Below are positions 5,707-54,400 of a stretch of 64,000 nt of DNA, one piece after another. This DNA is from Octopus vulgaris (Eukaryota). The number at the start of each line of letters is the position of its first letter. The first letter of the stretch is position 1. The position numbers and the translations under genes are program-made. The stretch spans positions 47,182,001-47,246,000 of the forward strand of contig OX597836.1 of NCBI GenBank assembly GCA_951406725.2. The letters run 5' to 3'. Under the pieces are notes generated by a model. The model was not told the DNA's origin. It ran no database searches and saw only the letters and a list, made by a program, of their open reading frames with translations.

Positions 5707-6330
5707 ATATTGGTTTCAAGTTTTGGCACAAGGCCAGCAATTTCGTGGGAGAAGGCAAGTTGATTATATCGACTCCATAGCTTAACTGGTACTTATTTTA
5801 TCGACCTTCAACGAATGAACGGCAAAGTCAACCCCGGCAGCATTTGAACTCAGGACGTTAAGTCGGACAAAATACCGCTAAGCATTTTGTCCAGCGCACT
5901 AACGATTCTTATTTCTTTATTGCCCACAAGGGGCTAAACATAGAAGAGACAAACAAGGACAGACAAGGGGATTACGTCGATTACATCGACCCCAGTGCGT
6001 AACTGGTACTTAATTTATGGACCCCGAAAGGATGAAAGGGAAAATCGACCTCGGCGGAATTTGAACGCAGAACATAACAGCAAACGAAATACCTATTTCT
6101 ATTTCTTTACTACCCACAATGGGCTAAACACGGAGAGGACATACAAGGACAGACAAATGGATTAAGTCGATTATATCGACCCCAGTGCGTAACTGGTACT
6201 TATTTAATCAACCCCGAAAGGATGAAAGGCAAAGTCGACCTCGGCGGAATTTGAACTCAGAACGCAGCGGCATACGAAACACTGCTAAGCATTTCGCCCG
6301 GCGTGCTAACGATTCTGCCAGTTCGCCGCC
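5707..6330 (-). mobile_element. Cluster of three SINE B copies in tandem
   Basis: Three repeats of the gtacttat...cgaccccgaaaggatgaaaggcaaagtcgacctcggcggaatttgaac block. Confidence 0.8.
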
Positions 6331-6758
6331 TTTCCACTTCGAGAATATTGTCAAACATCTAAGACGCTCTTGCTGCTGCACACACTAACATCCAAAACTG
6401 TAACCCACAGAAAACTGTCCGAATGATTTAACAAACAAATTCCTCTTCAACACCTGACCAACAGGTGGGCCTTTTTCTTCTCGCCTTGCCTTTGCTACCG
6501 TACTTCAGTAGTCTCTGCTCGTCCAGGCAAACCCACCCAACACACCCATAACTCATCTTTTCATTATCTACACTCCCTAACATCTCAGGCCGTTAACCCT
6601 CATGAAATCCATGCCTATCTCCGTTTTATTTTAGTTCCTATAGTCATTAAGTGACAGATGTTGAAACTGAGCATCAACAGCAGTGAATGACACTTCGGTT
6701 TGTAATCAATTAATAAACTCTGCTACATATATTTAGCAGCTTGTTTTTAAATCCCAAT

Positions 6759-6800
<42 letters not shown>

Positions 6801-7019
6801 GTATATAAGTAGATATATTATGCATGCATAATATGTGTGCACGTGTGTGTGTATGTACGTGTGTGTATGTATATTAAGCGTACGTGTTTCAGTCAGTCTG
6901 TACGAGTCGACCATATTAGTACAACCGTCTGATTTATTACCACGTAGAAATGTATAACAATAAATAGGAAGACGGTTAAATACTCTTACACACACAACCA
7001 TATATCTGTACATAAGCAT

Positions 7020-7175
7020 GCATATATATATATATATATGCATGTATATGTATGTAAATGTATTATGTATTTATATATATGTATATATGTATGTATATAT
7101 ATATATATATATTGATTGATTGATTGATATATATATATATATATATATATATGCATGTATGTATACGTATATATA

Positions 7176-7223
<48 letters not shown>

Positions 7224-7238
7224 GTATGTATGTATATG

Positions 7239-7282
<44 letters not shown>

Positions 7283-7384
7283 ATTATATATATATATGTA
7301 TGTATATATATATATAGATACATACATATATTACATTATATGGATATACGCAGACTATTAAGCATTCTCTTTATTCTCCCGCAC

Positions 7385-7428
<44 letters not shown>

Positions 7429-7493
7429 CATATACACAAAACTAAGAAGAATGACCACTAAAGTGGACACTTAATATGCTAAACATAGACGTC

Positions 7494-7547
<54 letters not shown>

Positions 7548-7552
7548 GGGTG

Positions 7553-7605
<53 letters not shown>

Positions 7606-7696
7606 ATAGATAAATAGATATGTGTGTATGAATGTATGTACGAGTATATATGTATACATACATATATATGTATATATGTATGAATGTATGTGTATG

Positions 7697-7743
<47 letters not shown>

Positions 7744-7755
7744 TATATATATATA
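7020..7755. repeat. Compound microsatellite (TA)n/(GA)n/(GATA)n/(ATGT)n
   Basis: Direct inspection. Confidence 0.95.
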
Positions 7756-7900
7756 AATATCGTGTACATTAAAACACATTAAGAAGCTTCCAAATAGGAA
7801 AGCCTTGTGCTAGAAAGAGCAGTAGAAAACGCAAACCACTAATTATGGATAAATTCTCGAAAGGAATGAAAATTAAAAACGTTTATCATCTAATTTAGTT

Positions 7901-7966
7901 CCTAGACCATGGTTTCTGACTAATTCCAGTAAAAAATATTTACTGAGGCTAGTCTTCGTCAGTAGG
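7901..7966 (-). ncRNA. Type I hammerhead ribozyme motif (left arm)
   Basis: Reverse complement: ccta CTGACGA a gactag-cctcagtaaa-tatt-ttttactgga-attagtc a GAAA C CATG G TC tagg. Confidence 0.75.
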
Positions 7967-8176
7967 TAGCCTTTAGATTTCAACTATACACACAACTAGA
8001 TCCGCATGTAAACTAGCTGCCCGTATATCCTAAATTTTCAAAACCACTGCACAGGAAATAAACTTCTGTCGCCGTAAATAAACTGCATCTGCGCAGTGGT
8101 TTTGAAAAATTAGGATATACGGGCAGCTAGTTTACATGCGGATCTAGTTGTGTGTATAGTTGAAATCTAAAGGCTA

Positions 8177-8243
8177 CCTACTGACGAAGACTAGCCTCAG
8201 TAAATATTTTGTTACTGGAATTAGTCAGAAACCATGGTCTAGG
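8177..8243 (+). ncRNA. Type I hammerhead ribozyme motif (right arm), predicted cleavage after GUC at 8239
   Basis: Stem I ccta/tagg; core CTGACGA at 8181-8187; extended stem II (gacta/tagtc plus cagtaa/ttactg); GAAA at 8228-8231; minimal stem III with palindromic CATG loop. Confidence 0.78.
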
Positions 8244-8484
8244 GACTAAATTAGATGATAAACGTTTTTAATTTTCTTTCCTTTCGAGTATTTATCCCTA
8301 ATTAGTGGTTTGAGCTTTCTACTCCTCTTTCTAGCACAAGGCTTTCCTATTTGGAAGCCTCTTAATGCATTTTAATGTACACGATATTTTTATGTGAATA
8401 ATATATAGTCTATTGACTAATTTTTTTGTGCTAGGCCACTGGTAATAATAATTTCTATAATTCTTATTATTATTAATATATATT

Positions 8485-8559
<75 letters not shown>

Positions 8560-8574
8560 ATGTATGTATGTATG

Positions 8575-8620
<46 letters not shown>

Positions 8621-8702
8621 ACTGTATGTATGCATATATATGTATGTATATGTATATATGTATGTATGAATGTATGTGTATGTATATATATGTATGTATG
8701 TC

Positions 8703-8755
<53 letters not shown>

Positions 8756-9449
8756 CTCAACTCATACTTACGTGCTGAAGCTCTCCGTTTACATCATTTA
8801 TTCATCATACTCTTTCACACCTCACCTATAATAGTGATTTCCTTCAAAAGTTTTCTCTTATTCTCGTTTAAAAGGTGAATTTATCACTGACGTGTGGCTA
8901 TAACCAAAACATGAATATTCATTACAATGGCTGTTCGATGCAAATGAAGAAAATTGTTTATAGCATTTCGTATATTTGGTGCTTACGTTTCTTGTTTTCG
9001 TCATCGAGATTGAATGAAAGCGACGATAAATTATGATCATTCTGACCGATTAGAATTCAGTGTATGTTTTGATTTCATTCTCAGAATGACCTTATTAATT
9101 TATATGTCGAGCTAATGTGTCGCCTCTTTTACAAAGGGAAACTGTCCGTTTATTGATTGTGTCGCATTTTATCCCTCCTACTCGGCCCATAAGGAAGAAT
9201 TTAAACTCCATGGGTCGGATGAACTTACCATTGTTTTCTACACTACAAGCTAACTTTCAAAACCCATTAATTAGAGATTTTTTTCTGCGCTGTAGGACAC
9301 TGAACTGTGCGTACACATACAGTATAACTATTTGCAGGCAGATGTAAGTTAAAAATATTTCGGTATCTTGCACAGGTATATTGTTATAATGTTATAAATG
9401 GAAATGATTTCTGAACATTTCTGTCATTGGTTCGACCTACTACAACATC

Positions 9450-9672
9450 TGGCAGAAACGTTAGCACGCCGGGCGAAATGCTTAGCGGTATTTCGTCTGC
9501 CGTTACGTTCTGAGTTCGAATTCTGCCGAGGTCGACTTTGCCTTTCATCCTTTCGGGGTCGATAAATTAAGTACAGTTACGCACTGGGGTCGATATTATC
9601 GACTTGGTCCGTTTGTCTGTCCTTGTTTGTCCCTTCTGTGTTTGGCCCCTTGTGGGTAGTAAAGAAATAGGT
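9450..9672 (+). mobile_element. SINE family B
   Basis: ctggcagaaacgttagcacgccgggcg...ccccttgtgggtagtaaagaaatag. Confidence 0.85.
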
Positions 9673-9839
9673 ATTGAAAGGGAAAAGTCAGATCAGACGG
9701 CGGTGACAATATTAAAGAAAGGGAACAAAATATCTGGTTAACTGCAGAGACAAAATTTTGAAGTTATACCATTCGTCTTTAAGAATAATCAAATAAGAAT
9801 GAACTTTATACATTTTTCAGTGGATAACAAAGTGTAACA

Positions 9840-19045: not shown

Positions 19046-19394
19046 TTGGTACTTGATCTATTGATCCCGAAAAGATGAAAGTCAAATTCGACCTCGGCGG
19101 AATGTGAACTCAGAACATAAAGGAAGTCGCAATGCCGCTAAGTATTTTGGCCGGCGTGCTAGCGATTCTGCCAGCTCGCCACCCTAATAATAATAATAAC
19201 GCTTTCAGATTTTGGCTCAAGGCCTGGAATTTCGATGAAGCTATAGGTCGATTAGATCGATCCCAGTGCTCAAGTGGTACTTATTTTATCGACCTCGAAA
19301 GAATGAAAAACAAAGTGTCCCTCGATGGAATTTGAACCTCAGAACAAGAAGACGGGTGAAATACCGCTAAATATTTAGCCAGTTCGCCGCCTTG

Positions 19395-19441
<47 letters not shown>

Positions 19442-19632
19442 CCTTTCTAGTGGAGGCACTAAGCCACTGATTTGTGGAGTGGAGACTAGTCGATTATATC
19501 GACCCCAGTGTTTCACTGGTACTTAATTTACCGGCCCCTAAAGGATGAAAGGCAGAGTTGACCTCGGCGGAATTTGAACCCAGAACGTAGTGACGGGCGA
19601 AATACCGCCAAGCATTTCGCCAGCTCGCCGCC
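19045..19632 (-). mobile_element. Three SINE B copies separated by (AAT)n
   Basis: Repeated gacctcggcggaatttgaac/ccagctcgccgcc blocks. Confidence 0.75.
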
Positions 19633-19698
<66 letters not shown>

Positions 19699-24189: not shown

Positions 24190-24251
<62 letters not shown>

Positions 24252-24272
24252 TGTAGTAGCAGCAGCAGTAGC

Positions 24273-24343
<71 letters not shown>

Positions 24344-24344
24344 C

Positions 24345-24379
<35 letters not shown>

Positions 24380-24380
24380 C

Positions 24381-24415
<35 letters not shown>

Positions 24416-24419
24416 CAGC

Positions 24420-24491
<72 letters not shown>

Positions 24492-24512
24492 TGTAGTAGC
24501 AGCAGCAGTAGC

Positions 24513-24551
<39 letters not shown>

Positions 24552-24572
24552 TGTAGTAGCAGCAGCAGTAGC

Positions 24573-24631
<59 letters not shown>

Positions 24632-24632
24632 C

Positions 24633-24673
<41 letters not shown>

Positions 24674-24695
24674 CAGTAGTAGCAGCAGCAGTAGC

Positions 24696-24731
<36 letters not shown>

Positions 24732-24752
24732 TGTAGTAGCAGCAGCAGTAGC

Positions 24753-24787
<35 letters not shown>

Positions 24788-24794
24788 CAGCAGC

Positions 24795-24829
<35 letters not shown>

Positions 24830-25013
24830 CAGCAGCAGCAGTAGTAGTAGTAGTAGTAGTAGTGGTAGCAGTAGTAGTAGTAGTAGTAGTAGCAGTAGTA
24901 GTAGTAGTTGTAGTAGCAGCAGCAGTAGCAGTAGTAGTAGTAGTAGTAGTAGTAGTAGCAGTAGTAGTAGTAGTAGTAGTAGTAGTTGTAGTAGCAGCAG
25001 CAGCAGCAGTAGC

Positions 25014-25084
<71 letters not shown>

Positions 25085-25085
25085 C

Positions 25086-25120
<35 letters not shown>

Positions 25121-25124
25121 CAGC

Positions 25125-25189
<65 letters not shown>

Positions 25190-25190
25190 C

Positions 25191-25228
<38 letters not shown>

Positions 25229-25229
25229 C

Positions 25230-25267
<38 letters not shown>

Positions 25268-25268
25268 C

Positions 25269-25310
<42 letters not shown>

Positions 25311-25311
25311 T

Positions 25312-25363
<52 letters not shown>

Positions 25364-25364
25364 C

Positions 25365-25402
<38 letters not shown>

Positions 25403-25403
25403 C

Positions 25404-25447
<44 letters not shown>

Positions 25448-25463
25448 CAGCAGCAGCAGTAGC

Positions 25464-25505
<42 letters not shown>

Positions 25506-25518
25506 TGTAGTAGTAGTT

Positions 25519-25552
<34 letters not shown>

Positions 25553-25553
25553 C

Positions 25554-25591
<38 letters not shown>

Positions 25592-25592
25592 C

Positions 25593-25624
<32 letters not shown>

Positions 25625-25676
25625 CAGTAGTAGTAGTAGTAGTAGTAGCAGTAGTAGTAGTAGTAGTAGTAGCAGC

Positions 25677-25720
<44 letters not shown>

Positions 25721-25749
25721 CAGTAGTAGTAGTAGTAGTAGTAGTAGTT

Positions 25750-25784
<35 letters not shown>

Positions 25785-25802
25785 TGTAGTAGCAGCAGCA
25801 GC

Positions 25803-25894
<92 letters not shown>

Positions 25895-25919
25895 CAGTAG
25901 TAGTAGTAGTAGTAGCAGC

Positions 25920-25972
<53 letters not shown>

Positions 25973-25973
25973 C

Positions 25974-26006
<33 letters not shown>

Positions 26007-26019
26007 TGTAGTAGTAGTT

Positions 26020-26053
<34 letters not shown>

Positions 26054-26078
26054 CAGTAGTAGTAGTAGTAGTAGTAGC

Positions 26079-26136
<58 letters not shown>

Positions 26137-26153
26137 GCAGTAGTAGTAGTAGC

Positions 26154-26188
<35 letters not shown>

Positions 26189-26210
26189 CAGTAGTAGTAG
26201 TAGTAGTAGC

Positions 26211-26242
<32 letters not shown>

Positions 26243-26243
26243 C

Positions 26244-26305
<62 letters not shown>

Positions 26306-26306
26306 C

Positions 26307-26350
<44 letters not shown>

Positions 26351-26354
26351 CAGC

Positions 26355-26419
<65 letters not shown>

Positions 26420-26456
26420 CAGTAGCAGTAGTAGTAGTAGTAGTAGTAGTAGCAGC

Positions 26457-26503
<47 letters not shown>

Positions 26504-26516
26504 CAGCAGCAGTAGC

Positions 26517-26564
<48 letters not shown>

Positions 26565-26582
26565 TGTAGTAGTAGTAGTAGT
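24190..26582. repeat. 2.4-kb (AGT)n trinucleotide array with AGC/TTG variant units
   Basis: Direct inspection; source of the poly-Thr, poly-Ser and poly-Val ORFs. Confidence 0.97.
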
Positions 26583-36094: not shown

Positions 36095-38334
36095 GACATG
36101 CGCAGTTAGTCGGTTGCTTCTTGTTGAGCTAGAGTGGACGTGAGTAACAAGCTCTGTCCAACTAAAGAAAAAAGACCAAAAACGGAAAGTTGTCGAGGTA
36201 AGTGATTTTGTTTATTGTGAGTTGGGCATAATTTATTGCGTGCCAATTATTATTTCAGTAGGTTGTGTCCAACTCTGAGACAATTTCGCCTGCGCTAGGC
36301 GGCTGCCGTTTTTGTGTTCATTGAAAAAAAAAAAAAAAGAAAAAACAGTGGAGGGGCGTATACTCAGAATTCAATACAGTTACTGTTAAAATTACCGTTG
36401 GCGGTAGCCAGTGCTGCGTTTGAGTTTGCTGAATTTATTCCCTTGTCAGAGTACTTCGCAAGAAAAGTATAAAAATAAGCCACTATTGGATTACCTTTCG
36501 GACCCATTTTTGTGGAGGTTGTGTTGCAGTTGCGGCGTTCCGGGTTCAACCCAGGCCGGGAGTACCGCAAGGCCAGAATATTTTTGCTGTGTTTTTTCTG
36601 TTTATTAACTTTCTTTTGAACTTCATTTACCCCCCCCCTTTTGTTTTTTCTTTATTGCGACTTTCCGTTAATTTCTTCCCTTCTGTTGTGCTTTCTCCTT
36701 TTTGTTTTTTCAAAAATCTATCAAATTTATTTAGACTTTTGAACTTTTTTCTTCCTGCTTTTGAGTTTAATTTGAATATATTTTTAAAAAAACATGGCAA
36801 TGAAAAATAACAAAGTTTTGGAGTGGGAAATCATACCACCCAAAAAGTGGTTGAAGGACCGTGAAGATAGGACGGTGGTGTTGAGAACCTACTCCAAGGC
36901 ACTTGACACCATCGCCCTATTCGAAAAGACGGCAATTGAGGAGGAGTTGGAGGAGTATTTGCCAACAATTAAATTCATTTCCAGGGGTGTCAAATATGCA
37001 ACGGTGTGATTGCTGTTTGACACCCCTGAAGAGGCTTGCAAATTTGCTAGCGAACCCTTGGAGGGTAAGGAAATCTTATTCCTGCCCACGTACAAAAAAA
37101 AGAAATTGATGAAAGCTTGGATCTGCGGACTGCCACCCGACATAGAACCCGAGTGGATAGAGGAGACTATCCGCCGGGGTCTGGGTGACAGCGAAACTAA
37201 GCTCCTCAATGTAAAAGTTCTTCCTGCGGCTGCTTGGGTTGGCTCGAAAGCAATTTTGACCCTGTGGACCCAATCAGCCAATCTGGTTTTTCCAGATTTT
37301 TTTAAAATGGCCGGGTGCAGGTACCCGGTGATGCTTGAGGGTCGCCCCCCTAAGTGTCATCGGTGCTTGGAGTCCGGCCACATAAAGAAGAACTGTCCTC
37401 GGGAACAAAATAGGATCCCGGAACAGTTAAGTAAAACCCCTCTAGAAGAGGGAACGATAACGGCCGAGAAAGCAGAGGACTCCTCAAGCAGAGGCCGAAA
37501 GAGGAAGGTGAGCAACAATGGGTGCTCACCAAAGGATAATAGGGATGAGGAGAGGAGGGCGAATCTTCCAGCCACGGAGGAGACGCACCCTCCCTCAGTT
37601 GAAAAGGGAAAAAAAAAGAAAAAGAGGAAGAAAAACGGGACGTTGCCGGCTGTCAGTGTGGCACCGGAATGTCGCGGAACTACGTCGGTTGGGGTTGTGC
37701 CACCGACAAGAGAAGGAATACCGTTGGCGGAAACTGTGCCGCCAACGAAAGAACTGAATGTATTGGTCATCTTCTATAGAGGAGGAGAAATTGAAAAAGT
37801 GATGGAAGAGCACTACAAGGGAGCACCTTTAGCCTTCACACAGGACCCCGAATGGCCTCCGCAGGTAGCTGTGGAGGCCGTGGGGTTCGACGTGACGCTA
37901 GGGTTAAAGGAGCTCAATGAAGATTATAACTTGGTCCCGGGCGACGCGAACTCGGAACTTGACTACGTTCTGAGGGAGGCGTGGTTGATGGTGGAGGGCG
38001 CGGGCACAAGCTATTTCGAGGACGATATGTATTATTAGTAATGGACTTAAGTCCAAAAATTGAAAAATTGTAAGAGGATTAATACCTCGTTTTGTATTAA
38101 TAATGGACTGCTAAGCCCAAAATTGGAAAAATTGTAAGAGGTTTAATACCTCGTTTTGTGTTTATCTTTTTAAAAAGAACAATGTTTTAGAGAAGCAAAA
38201 GTCGGCGGGCGCTTTCTGTCTTCTCCCATCCTTATCATCTTTCTTTCATTATCATTCACCTCATTAATGTCCTCGTCCAGCCCGCAAAGCTAACTTAATC
38301 TGTGTACTGCCTTTATGGCAAATGTTTTGAAATA
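36095..38334 (+). mobile_element. ORF1-only Tx1-like non-LTR retroelement inserted in a SINE A head
   Basis: TSD aagtagctt(t)gctaacca at 36077-36094 and 38335-38351; the SINE head (36055) and body (38335-38720) are split by the insertion; the element ends in AATAAA. Confidence 0.85.
36794..38038 (+). pseudogene. Gag/ORF1-like protein with a CCHC zinc knuckle (~414 codons, one internal TGA)
   Basis: ORFs 36794-37009 and 37010-38038 are in frame; RRM-like WICGLPPDIEPEWIEE, EGRPPKCHRCLESGHIKKNCP knuckle, basic KKKKKRKK. The paralogue has TGG at the stop position. Confidence 0.8.
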
Positions 38335-38739: not shown

Positions 38740-40249
38740 ATTGTGAGAAATATAATTTGGTGACTTTCCTGCCACCGAAAGTCGTTCGCTGTTTTTAAAT
38801 AGTGTGTATTTTACGACTACGTTGGAAAGCTGTATTCAAGTGGAGCAGTTCAGGTTCGAATTGGAGTACCATAAGAGCTTAGAATACATGAATGCCCAGA
38901 AGATTTTTTTTGCTGTGTTTTCTTTTTTTGAACTATTATTTTCTTCTATTGTAATTTTTTTAACTGTTTGTTTTTATTTATTTCTTCTTCCCTTTTGTTT
39001 TCTTTTGAATTCTCTCTTTCCTTTTTTTGTGAACTATTGCTTTGGACATGGCAAAAAAACAATACGGATAAGATTGTTGCGTAGGAGATTGTCCAACCGA
39101 AGCAGTGGCTAAAAAATATGGAGGAGAGGACGGTGGTGGTTAGAACTTATTCTAAAGTTCTTGATTCCATCACCGTCTTCCCAAAACCAGTTATAGAAAA
39201 TGAACTGAAAGACTATTTGTCCTCTATGAAATACATATCCCGCGGTGTCTAACCTGCAACCGTATGGTTGCTGTTTGACAAGGCTCGCACAGCCCTTAGA
39301 GGGCAACGAGATTCTGTTCCTCCCGTCGTACTGCGAGAGGAAATTAATAAGAGCCTGGGTATGTGGGTTACCCCCAGGCACCGAGGCGTGTTGGATTGAA
39401 GATACCATCCGACGGGGACTGGGGACTGGGGGATAGCAGGCCCAAGCTCTTAAATGCCGACGGTCGATTGGAAGGGTCAAAAGCGATTTTGACCCTATGG
39501 ACCCCATCGGCCGCAACAGATCTGGTTTTTCCAGATTTTTTTTAATGGATGGCTTAAGGTATCCAGTGATACTTGAGGGTTACCCCCCCCCCCCACAAGT
39601 GTTACTCGTGCCTGGAGTCAGGTCATATTAAGAAGGACTACACCCGGGGCCGTAGTAAGGTCCCGGAGCAGGGAAAGCTGAAAGTACCCTCCGCTCTCCC
39701 ATTGCAGGGAGAAACGGAAGAAGTCTTTGAGGCATCGGCCTCAACGAGAAGGAGAAGAAAGGTAAACAGATGCGCAGGCTGCTGGAGAGGAGGACCCCCG
39801 GGTGTGCCGGTAGAGGCCCCGACTCCCGCGACCGTAAAATGGAAAAAGAAAAGAAAGAGAAACGGGAGACGGTCAGCGGAGGTCGTGACTCAGAAAGAGT
39901 TGTTTGAGGTCATGGTGACCTGCAATAAGAAAGAATTTGCTTTCCTCTTTCCGGACCCCGACCTGCCGATGCAGGCTTTCCTGCAGGCGGCGGGTCATTT
40001 GCTTGAGGGCTCCGATGAGGGGGATTGATTGTGTGTATACGGAATAATTTTGTAATGCACTATTAAGTCCAATAATTGTAAAAACTGTCATAAAAAAAGA
40101 ACAATGTTTTAGAGAAGCAGAGTATCGAAGGGCGTTTTCTGCCTTCTCTCATCAATATCATCCTTGTTTCATCATTCACCTCATCAATGTATATGTCCAG
40201 CCCGCAAGCTACTCTTTGTGATGCCTTTATGGCAAATTTTAATGAAATA
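38740..40249 (+). mobile_element. Second, diverged copy of the ORF1-only element (frameshifted)
   Basis: PLEGNEILFLPSY..RKLIRAWVCGLPPG, KCYSCLESGHIKK, and the same 3' UTR (aaagaacaatgttttagagaagca...gtccagcccgcaa...gcctttatggcaaat...gaaataaa). Confidence 0.8.
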
Positions 40250-50868: not shown

Positions 50869-51109
50869 TTGTCTCTTTGTTTTCTCTCCGTGTTGATATA
50901 AGGACAATTTAGGTGGTTTTAGAGTCAGATCATGGCTGCTATTTTCAGCATGGTGGTATCTCGTAGATACCCGAATTTATAATTTTAATAATTATTACCT
51001 TTGAAGGTTATTTTTTCCACGCTGACCACTTGATAAAATCTTATTTTGTTTTTAAATTAACGATCTTATCCTTATATATATAATATTTATATATATATAT
51101 ATATATATA

Positions 51110-51424
51110 TTTAGGGTAGTAAATTTTTACAAATTTCACTACCAGTGGCCTAGCATGTATAAAAAGGCAATAGACGACATATTATTCAATACAAAATAGT
51201 GTACATTTAAAACACAAAGCGAAATCATCTATAGCAGGCAATTTCTACACGCTAGGAGACAGTCAAAATGACCGAAAGCCACAAAAATTTAGGCAATGAA
51301 AAAATAAAAACTAGGTAAAACAAGGTAAAAGTTTATATTTTTTCATTCCCTTTGAAATCGCTTAAAGCTGTCTCCTTGCGTGTAGAAATTGCCTGTTATA
51401 GGTAATTTCTCTGTGTTTAAATGT
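51110..51424. mobile_element. Foldback relative of the 7752-8460 element, truncated at the tandem array
   Basis: 51203-51262 is inverted relative to 51368-51424; 51141-51215 matches the reverse complement of 8366-8443 (ctaggccactggt terminus). Confidence 0.7.
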
Positions 51425-54400
51425 CTCTGTCACGTGACTGTTGGCCGAAATCTGCCTTTCAGCCTCTGACCCTCGTTCTGTTAACATCGCTGTTTTCGTC
51501 CGCCACTATAAAGGCTTTTTCCATTGCGCCAGAGAAAAAATTTGTTTGCTTGTTATCAGTCGTAAGACACTGTTGTTTTCACCGTTAATGCTTCTGTATT
51601 TCATGTTTCTGTATTCCATTATTGTTTTTTGTTTTTTTATATCTGTCCCTTTTGCTGTCCTGGTGTTCGTATGCATTCGATCCTTCTTCCAGGAAATCTA
51701 CGCTTCCAGCTTAGTTTTTCTAATGCTCGTTGCTTGGTTTTTCTTGGAGGGCTGGCCGTGATCTAGTAATCTCAAGATTAATCAGCCGAAATTACTACGA
51801 TGATCCGGTTCTTGACTGAAGACTGAGGGTTTCGAATGTCCTGTCCGTGTTTATTGTGTCGTCTTCTAAGAGTTATACGTTCTTGTCCATGTTGTATTTT
51901 TCTACATACCTTAACATATATTCCAGGCGCCCCGTACCCCCCTTAACATTTATGTGAGCACATATTCTTAATAATTGGTACGACTCTCTGTTTGTCTCTC
52001 TCTCTCTCTCATTTTTACTTGATCTGTCCCCCTCTCTCTCTTTTCTCTCTACTCATCCTCTTTTTCTCTTCTCTTTCCTCTGATTCTTTGGTCTAGTCTT
52101 CCACTACCCTCCTATTTCTTTGTCTCGCTCTGCACTCACAGGTCATTCTTCGACACCCATCCCTTCTCCTCTCTGATTCCTTCTTTCTCTCTCTTCTCTC
52201 TCTTTGTTGCGTTTGTCCCTCCTCTCTCTCTCTCTTCCTTTGCTTCTCTTTCTTTTCTTTTCCCTCTTCTCTGTCACGTGACTGTTGGCCGAAATCTGCC
52301 TTTCAGCCTCTGACCCTCGTTCTGTTAACATCGCTGTTTTCGTCCGCCACTATAAAGGCTTTTTCCATTGCGCCAGAGAAAAAATTTGTTTGCTTGTTAT
52401 CAGTCGTAAGACACTGTTGTTTTCACCGTTAATGCTTCTGTATTTCATGTTTCTGTATTCCATTATTGTTTTTTGTTTTTTTATATCTGTCCCTTTTGCT
52501 GTCCTGGTGTTCGTATGCATTCGATCCTTCTTCCAGGAAATCTACGCTTCCAGCTTAGTTTTTCTAATGCTCGTTGCTTGGTTTTTCTTGGAGGGCTGGC
52601 CGTGATCTAGTAATCTCAAGATTAATCAGCCGAAATTACTACGATGATCCGGTTCTTGACTGAAGACTGAGGGTTTCGAATGTCCTGTCCGTGTTTATTG
52701 TGTCGTCTTCTAAGAGTTATACGTTCTTGTCCATGTTGTATTTTTCTACATACCTTAACATATATTCCAGGCGCCCCGTACCCCCTTAACATTTATGTGA
52801 GCACATATTCTTAATAATTGGTACGACTCTCTGTTTGTCTCTCTCTCTCTCTCATTTTTACTTGATCTGTCCCCCTCTCTCTCTTTTCTCTCTACTCATC
52901 CTCTTTTTCTCTTCTCTTTCCTCTGATTCTTTGGTCTAGTCTTCCACTACCCTCCTATTTCTTTGTCTCGCTCTGCACTCACAGGTCATTCTTCGACACC
53001 CATCCCTTCTCCTCTCTGATTCCTTCTTTCTCTCTCTTCTCTCTCTTTGTTGCGTTTGTCCCTCCTCTCTCTCTCTCTTCCTTTGCTTCTCTTTCTTTTC
53101 TTTTCCCTCTTCTCTGTCACGTGACTGTTGGCCGAAATCTGCCTTTCAGCCTCTGACCCTCGTTCTGTTAACATCGCTGTTTTCGTCCGCCACTATAAAG
53201 GCTTTTTCCATTGCGCCAGAGAAAAAATTTGTTTGCTTGTTATCAGTCGTAAGACACTGTTGTTTTCACCGTTAATGCTTCTGTATTTCATGTTTCTGTA
53301 TTCCATTATTGTTTTTTGTTTTTTTATATCTGTCCCTTTTGCTGTCCTGGTGTTCGTATGCATTCGATCCTTCTTCCAGGAAATCTACGCTTCCAGCTTA
53401 GTTTTTCTAATGCTCGTTGCTTGGTTTTTCTTGGAGGGCTGGCCGTGATCTAGTAATCTCAAGATTAATCAGCCGAAATTACTACGATGATCCGGTTCTT
53501 GACTGAAGACTGAGGGTTTCGAATGTCCTGTCCGTGTTTATTGTGTCGTCTTCTAAGAGTTATACGTTCTTGTCCATGTTGTATTTTTCTACATACCTTA
53601 ACATATATTCCAGGCGCCCCGTACCCCCCTTAACATTTATGTGAGCACATATTCTTAATAATTGGTACGACTCTCTGTTTGTCTCTCTCTCTCTCTCATT
53701 TTTACTTGATCTGTCCCCCTCTCTCTCTTTTCTCTCTACTCATCCTCTTTTTCTCTTCTCTTTCCTCTGATTCTTTGGTCTAGTCTTCCACTACCCTCCT
53801 ATTTCTTTGTCTCGCTCTGCACTCACAGGTCATTCTTCGACACCCATCCCTTCTCCTCTCTGATTCCTTCTTTCTCTCTCTTCTCTCTCTTTGTTGCGTT
53901 TGTCCCTCCTCTCTCTCTCTCTTCCTTTGCTTCTCTTTCTTTTCTTTTCCCTCTTCTCTGTCACGTGACTGTTGGCCGAAATCTGCCTTTCAGCCTCTGA
54001 CCCTCGTTCTGTTAACATCGCTGTTTTCGTCCGCCACTATAAAGGCTTTTTCCATTGCGCCAGAGAAAAAATTTGTTTGCTTGTTATCAGTCGTAAGACA
54101 CTGTTGTTTTCACCGTTAATGCTTCTGTATTTCATGTTTCTGTATTCCATTATTGTTTTTTGTTTTTTTATATCTGTCCCTTTTGCTGTCCTGGTGTTCG
54201 TATGCATTCGATCCTTCTTCCAGGAAATCTACGCTTCCAGCTTAGTTTTTCTAATGCTCGTTGCTTGGTTTTTCTTGGAGGGCTGGCCGTGATCTAGTAA
54301 TCTCAAGATTAATCAGCCGAAATTACTACGATGATCCGGTTCTTGACTGAAGACTGAGGGTTTCGAATGTCCTGTCCGTGTTTATTGTGTCGTCTTCTAA

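Follow-up and report, generated by a model that had tools for sequence, protein, structure and literature searches.

What is a foldback with a hammerhead ribozyme motif in each arm doing inside a TA microsatellite, and is the foldback itself the element? The window, that is, the whole 64-kb stretch of DNA analysed here, lies on contig C23 of a 2.8-Gb genome of 227 contigs. The ~300-bp inverted arms described by the first-pass annotation are indeed present (7755-8054 and 8089-8388): aligned without the microsatellite they match at 287 of 299 bases, plus one 1-nt gap, while the raw inverted-repeat blocks reach 92% (7744-7936/8208-8400) and 98% (7933-8054/8089-8210). The 12 differing positions include six transversions, and none is compensated. 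TA-rich and (TATG)n tracts flank the arms, with a (TA)n target at 7645-7754 on the left and (TA)n/(GT)n/(TATG)n at 8470-8754 on the right, neither assigned to a strand. The right arm extends ~80 nt further than the left, to ~8469, and the longest stop-free frame in 7755-8469 is 45 aa, in agreement with the claim that the locus is non-coding. A near-perfect palindrome inside a microsatellite could also be a fold-back chimera of the reads or the assembly. Arms that differ at this many positions and by a gap, together with a layout that recurs with different breakpoints on many contigs, make such an artefact barely credible.

Scanning the whole window, on both strands, with a hammerhead descriptor gives exactly two matches, one in each arm and with the spelling first claimed (C3 at 8181, +, and at 7962, -). 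In both, the core CUGANGA/GAAA/UH surrounds three helices and is open at stem I. The right-arm motif occupies 8177-8243 (+), with stem I at 8177-8180/8240-8243, the first core strand at 8181-8187, an extra A at 8188, stem II at 8189-8226, a second extra A at 8227, GAAA at 8228-8231 and stem III at 8231-8238 with its palindromic CATG loop; the predicted cut follows C17, at 8239/8240. The left-arm motif occupies 7901-7966 (-), with a predicted cut at 7905/7904. Each motif lies on the strand that places it in the 3' arm, so that the ribozyme site is found there whichever strand is read, as had been stated. A scan of 6500-9800 against Rfam (E<=10) returns 93 matches, none of them to a hammerhead family; the identification therefore rests on the descriptor and on covariation across the family, not on Rfam.

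Would either motif cut at this locus? The whole foldback has a predicted energy of -484 kcal/mol with a probability of 0.0 for the hammerhead helices, and 0.0 is also obtained for a nascent transcript holding the 5' arm, which a transcript of either strand would form first. In the isolated hammerhead the helices are predicted at only 0.1-0.35 (stem I 0.1-0.26, stem III 0.1), and cofolding of two copies predicts an intermolecular stem III. By these predictions the hairpin would block cutting. One sense hammerhead per strand, sequestration by the 5' arm and 4% drift between the arms indicate that this copy is likely dead; because it also has no same-strand partner, the folding model suggests that it most likely has no ribozyme activity and could at best supply double-stranded RNA. 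The suggestion that hairpin and ribozyme folds compete is thus right about the geometry and the hairpin, while the predicted contest is one-sided. A stronger version of that suggestion treats the foldback as a functional, strand-symmetric element, the transcript of which would alternate between a long hairpin and a self-cleaving fold. The arms are arranged as claimed, the two cores are intact, and 6 of the 155 loci of the family considered below carry inverted pairs in which both cores are strict. However, breakpoints and arm lengths vary at each locus, most copies are single-armed, and both the uncompensated arm differences and the hammerhead probability of zero in the foldback speak against a switch, which we hold to be very unlikely.

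The right arm belongs to a dispersed family. A genome search with it gave 1939 first-look candidates, and among the best 40, which were scored, the best other copies are 89-92% identical. At least 91 exact matches were counted for a 24-mer taken from the ribozyme's 3' side and 99 for a pattern of the whole core, against 0 for each reversed control. Measured from cut site to cut site, the repeat unit is 473 nt long in one copy (L014) and 471 nt in another (L038). It is non-coding and low in GC (31-34%), carries one type I hammerhead per unit, and in three natural stretches its longest stop-free frame spans 45-57 aa. Fifty loci mapped on the L014 unit are 5'-truncated pieces of ~0.4-1.6 units; upstream of the hammerhead these copies always re-enter the unit's own 3' part and never a reading frame. 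On this unit, the left arm (7755-8054, -) runs from ~321 through the hammerhead to ~150, a "short" outer end joined to (TA)n, and the right arm (8064-8469, +) from ~296 through the hammerhead to ~230, a "long" outer end. The one-sided tail (8389-8469, +), absent from the left arm, is the continuation into the next unit. The 34-nt spacer between the arms is itself unit sequence, made of 24 nt of unit and a ~10-nt repeat of nearby unit sequence; as read from the sequence, this junction filler (8055-8064, +) repeats the nearby piece in sense orientation, and the piece occurs again at ~8075-8085. The foldback is not the element. The element is the dispersed 473-nt non-coding unit, which runs on one strand, and the single locus is an ordinary ageing insertion. 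The label "strand-symmetric element" is not supported: 18 of the 28 copies found by BLAST have no inverted junction, the breakpoints move from locus to locus and the two outer ends differ.

Searches with diverged neighbours extend the family to six subfamilies, including the sisters B, C, D, E and G, which are 51-85% alike and keep the same ORF-less order. Stem I appears as CCUA/UAGG, CCCA/UGGG, CCUG/CAGG and GUUA/UAAC, basal stem II as GACU/AGUC, AACU/AGUU, GCAG/CUGC and GAUU/AAUC, and the palindrome closing stem III as CAUG, UGCA or UAUA. The first-pass annotation had proposed covariation across genomic copies as a check. In an alignment of 30 copies, chosen by the analyst from 140 collected, all four pairs of stem I and three of the four of basal stem II are altered on both sides, while stem III differs by subfamily with no compensatory change in this alignment. 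Overall, 88.9% of cells pair and 9 of 15 pairs are altered on both sides. Cells changed on both sides number 46, against 13.0 in shuffles (0 of 500 reach the observed value) and far lower counts in slid controls; as related sequences can beat shuffles, the count of pair types, equalled in 9 of 500 shuffles, is the more cautious figure. Three subfamily-G rows are off by one column at the 3' side, which lowers the counts and does not raise them. Across the subfamilies, the core has 8 invariant columns out of 11 and the remainder of the alignment 66 out of 335; this MAFFT alignment used representatives picked by their core, and it misregisters the GAAA of E and G. Core and stems are conserved above the flanks, whereas conservation no better than the flanks had been named as the outcome that would count against the motif. 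The comparative evidence, a kept core with stems I and II covarying across subfamilies, means that the ribozyme fold is real, and it bears out, at the level of sequence, the assignment to type I hammerheads with a minimal palindromic stem III. C3 is present in 48 of 50 parsed family-A copies. In subfamily B, U replaces C3 in 19 of 29 parsed copies (L063-L087); this lineage has spread with a changed core, which counts against the ribozyme reading.

Two intact hammerheads on the same strand, one unit apart, occur at 0 of the 155 loci that sample the family, leaving hardly any genomic substrate for dimer cleavage there. The L038 locus has two full motifs, one of them with a core change. Two other candidates were set aside: the same-strand core pair of L078/L081 is a 700-bp local duplication, and the second core match of L096 is spurious. 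Contigs from four sequencing runs, presumed to be RNA, contain pieces of the family that align to L014 and have no bearing on expression, cleavage or circles.

The window holds several other repeats. A hammerhead-less insertion of subfamily G, ~77% identical to the unit, lies at 51082-51215 (-) with an inverted piece at ~51230-51420. Copies of an abundant SINE-like repeat are found at 5910-6263, 9449-9574 and 19247-19682, which we take to resemble an octopus SINE. Further along are a 2.4-kb (GTA)n array (24190-26582), a four-copy repeat with a period of ~843 bp (51588-54150) and two related open frames (37010-38038 and 39570-40028, +) that encode a CxxCxxxxHxxxxC zinc knuckle and represent gag/ORF1-like LINE remnants.

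How are such units inserted? The 89 loci compared (the window, L003-L050 and L088-L127) contain 31 divergent inverted junctions and no convergent one; six of these loci were fetched as known inverted pairs, and the unbiased rate is 10 of 28 BLAST-found loci. Outer ends cluster at unit positions ~150-170 and ~240-260, both AT-rich and merging into (TA)n. All 17 clean inverted pairs, read by eye, combine one short with one long end; they are what is left of 32 rows after 14 were dropped as an unrelated antisense motif and L010 as an inner junction. Under a broader classing, both ends can be assigned in 25 pairs, of which 24 are mixed and one, L104, is long-long. The tail, ~80-100 nt, is found on one arm only. 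Long inverted repeats with TA flanks would also suit a foldback or MITE-type DNA transposon inserted at TA. Yet the outer ends are asymmetric, the inner truncation is variable, the tandems are permuted and the ribozyme covaries, all of which are retroelement traits; element length is not constant, and symmetric fixed termini were not found among the copies. A DNA transposon is hardly conceivable here.

The same anatomy is familiar from Penelope-like elements (PLEs). According to PMC8557442 (in the part available), their insertions are partial tandems truncated at the 5' end, next to which lies an inverted copy; a tail of 30-40 bp is often present at one end, and there is a bias to (TA)n. In the accessible text of PMC3846280, an optional tail on one inverted pLTR, a usual head-to-head arrangement and action in trans are reported, and an antisense self-priming model is proposed. 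Partial tandems, a head-to-head inverted copy, a one-sided tail and a (TA)n target are all found in the present family, whose insertion anatomy matches that of endonuclease-bearing (EN+) PLEs; the link to PLEs made in the first-pass annotation holds to that extent.

A very young PLE resides in the same genome. Its 775-aa ORF has RVT_1 and GIY-YIG domains on a 674-aa stretch and a CxxxxCxxC linker, a feature tied to Neptune (PMC8557442, as excerpted). An upstream 454-aa open frame shares ~90 nt with the RT frame, and the sequence suggests a frameshifted two-ORF layout. All 150 scored places, from 20447 candidates, are 100% identical over 241 aa; many copies keep the intact 775-aa RT-EN frame, and the 4271-bp unit forms perfect tandems (L210, at G000:C1:27840000-27849900; L211; L212; L140-L169). 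It also forms divergent foldbacks, 99.97-100% identical and with a one-sided tail, in (TA)n, and close pairs among the best 150 places, counted by eye, are divergent in 18 cases and convergent in none. Such near-identity indicates that the arms start identical, so that the 4% difference at the present locus reflects age. Copies of family A (~90% alike) are older than the young PLE family. The hammerhead core of the young PLE reads CCGAAGA in 32 of 32 young copies and CUGAAGA in 8 of 9 older ones (L210 9666, 5395 and 1124, -).

Is the unit part of such an element? Compared with the 4271-bp unit of the young PLE it has no similarity (best E 0.06), nor has it any to the pLTRs of the three or more coding families sampled, and it holds no RT plus GIY-YIG ORF between pLTRs. 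An autonomous PLE sharing its sequence was not found in the flanks of the loci fetched. It could nevertheless be argued that an autonomous PLE, with few or decayed coding copies, supplied the arms as its pLTR ends, and that the 473-nt unit is a solo pLTR repeat, or one derived by deletion, instead of an RNA that propagates independently. Truncated PLEs are taken as the source of most hammerheads that occur singly or on opposite strands (PMC4209133, in its accessible part), retrozymes are derived from pLTRs in the available text of a recent preprint (bioRxiv 10.64898/2026.07.22.740005), and PLE coding fragments abut the unit at three loci (L012, L094 and L102). However, the coding families of these three fragments have their own, unrelated 3' ends. 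A 4.2-kb direct pair on C20 (L031), considered as a full PLE, is a local duplication without an ORF. Copies of up to ~1.6 units run from unit into unit and contain no ORF, and the ORF-less order is maintained in all six subfamilies. The partner searches return the best 40 places, from which a rare partner could escape. On balance we judge a pLTR origin unlikely. At L102 (G000:C4:76450500-76455500), a 5'-truncated copy of the young PLE starts directly where a subfamily-C unit ends in TA, on the same strand; it was probably inserted later, into the target already used by the unit.

We favour, at a probability of roughly 0.8, the reading that the foldback is a pair of 5'-truncated, back-to-back copies of the 473-nt hammerhead unit, probably placed by a Neptune-type PLE enzyme acting in trans. 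The unit would be transcribed as a more-than-unit or circular RNA, in which same-strand hammerheads could pair by their palindromic stem III and cut as dimers. The RT-endonuclease of a Neptune-type PLE would then act on this RNA, with cDNA primed at TA-like sites from both cut ends of the target. Such two-end priming would yield two divergent arms, one with a short and one with a long outer end, and the insertion into the TA microsatellite was likely a single event. We infer the mobiliser by its footprint. Sequence and anatomy together suggest that the unit behaves like a non-LTR retrozyme that a PLE mobilises. Since two complete consecutive units occur neither at this locus nor among the 155 loci, and since no PLE ORF is present, we class it fully neither as a non-LTR retrozyme nor as a PLE. 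More tentatively, and with considerable doubt, the family may stand for a superfamily of hammerhead RNA circles without ORFs in cephalopods, with a hammerhead variant (long stem II, A.A base) that escapes standard models, copied by PLE enzymes of unrelated sequence that prime from both cut target ends on one circular template. If this were true, the strict short-end/long-end rule would be a direct genomic read-out of PLE integration and of retrozyme mobilisation.

Stem II deserves separate comment. Its insert measures 40 nt in the right arm and 39 nt in the left, with one A on each side, and 39-56 nt across the family. Its base is A.A in 44 of 50 parsed copies of family A, and in 22 of 22 of C and 10 of 10 of D, two counts that are not independent because these copies were selected by a pattern fixing the A.A letters. 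Elsewhere the base is A-U in 8 of 29 copies of B, which toggles between A.A and A-U (L063-L087), C.A or A.A in E, and plain G-C in G. The present motif thus differs from one with a Watson-Crick pair directly next to G12/A9 (10.1-11.1) and free of a 3' insertion. Mismatches at this position are tolerated elsewhere, since both an axolotl retrozyme (PMC7229834, in part) and the young PLE hammerhead have U.U. The structure had been called atypical. That description fits the long stem II and the 3' extra A, which are unusual though family-wide, but not the 5' extra A: in the accessible part of PMC4209133, an unpaired base between 9 and 10.1 and an enlarged helix II of 6-8 bp are typical of PLE hammerheads. 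The hammerhead literature consulted, as far as its available text goes, has no description of the 3' extra A or of a 39-56-nt insert.

How much of this is new? The layout, the PLE insertion signature and opposite-strand hammerheads are known, and it is the long stem II with its 3' extra A that, on sequence, is unusual. Dual minimal hammerheads ~100-700 bp apart on opposite strands are described in the accessible part of PMC4209133, so that, with the PLE insertion anatomy also published, the layout flagged at this locus is already in print. The way in which PLE tandem and inverted insertions are built, and retrozymes mobilised, is stated to be open in the available parts of PMC8557442 and PMC7229834. 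Literature on octopus and mollusc Penelope elements and hammerheads, in a coverage outside which most subscription papers and repeat databases fall, gives no account of the family or of two-end PLE priming. Hundreds of dated insertions, a fixed rule of orientation and two constant outer ends make this short non-coding family convenient test material, and its subfamilies, which vary in the stem II base (G-C, A-U, C.A or A.A) and at core position 3 (C3 or U3), form a natural series for hammerhead tolerance.

Three known systems can be compared with the unit. With insertions of EN+ PLEs of the Neptune clade (PMC8557442 and PMC3846280, both in part) it shares 5' truncation, partial tandems, a head-to-head inverted copy, a tail on one end, (TA)n targets and a hammerhead near the 3' end. 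It differs in having no RT-EN ORF, no sequence link found to a coding family, and a tail of ~80-100 nt rather than 30-40 bp. Compared with the minimal hammerheads of PLEs (PMC4209133, accessible part), in which helix II has 6-8 bp, the present motif has a 39-56-nt insert with an internal loop and a further A between 11.1 and G12. Unlike metazoan non-LTR retrozymes as described in the available text of PMC7229834 and bioRxiv 10.64898/2026.07.22.740005, which form arrays, the family consists of dispersed insertions, 0.5-1.6 units long and with inverted arms, and has two intact consecutive hammerheads at 0 of 155 loci, a long stem II with an A.A base and putative unit circles. Its length is slightly above the ~170-400 nt of Cervera (PMC7229834) and falls inside the 51-972 bp that Li et al. 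report (bioRxiv 10.64898/2026.07.22.740005); the accessible text of that preprint gives cleavage for one of nine dimers tested. Shared with these retrozymes are the non-coding unit with one type I hammerhead, the low GC content, head-to-tail continuity and co-resident PLEs, and animal retrozymes are themselves argued, in the available part of the same preprint, to be non-autonomous derivatives of PLEs.
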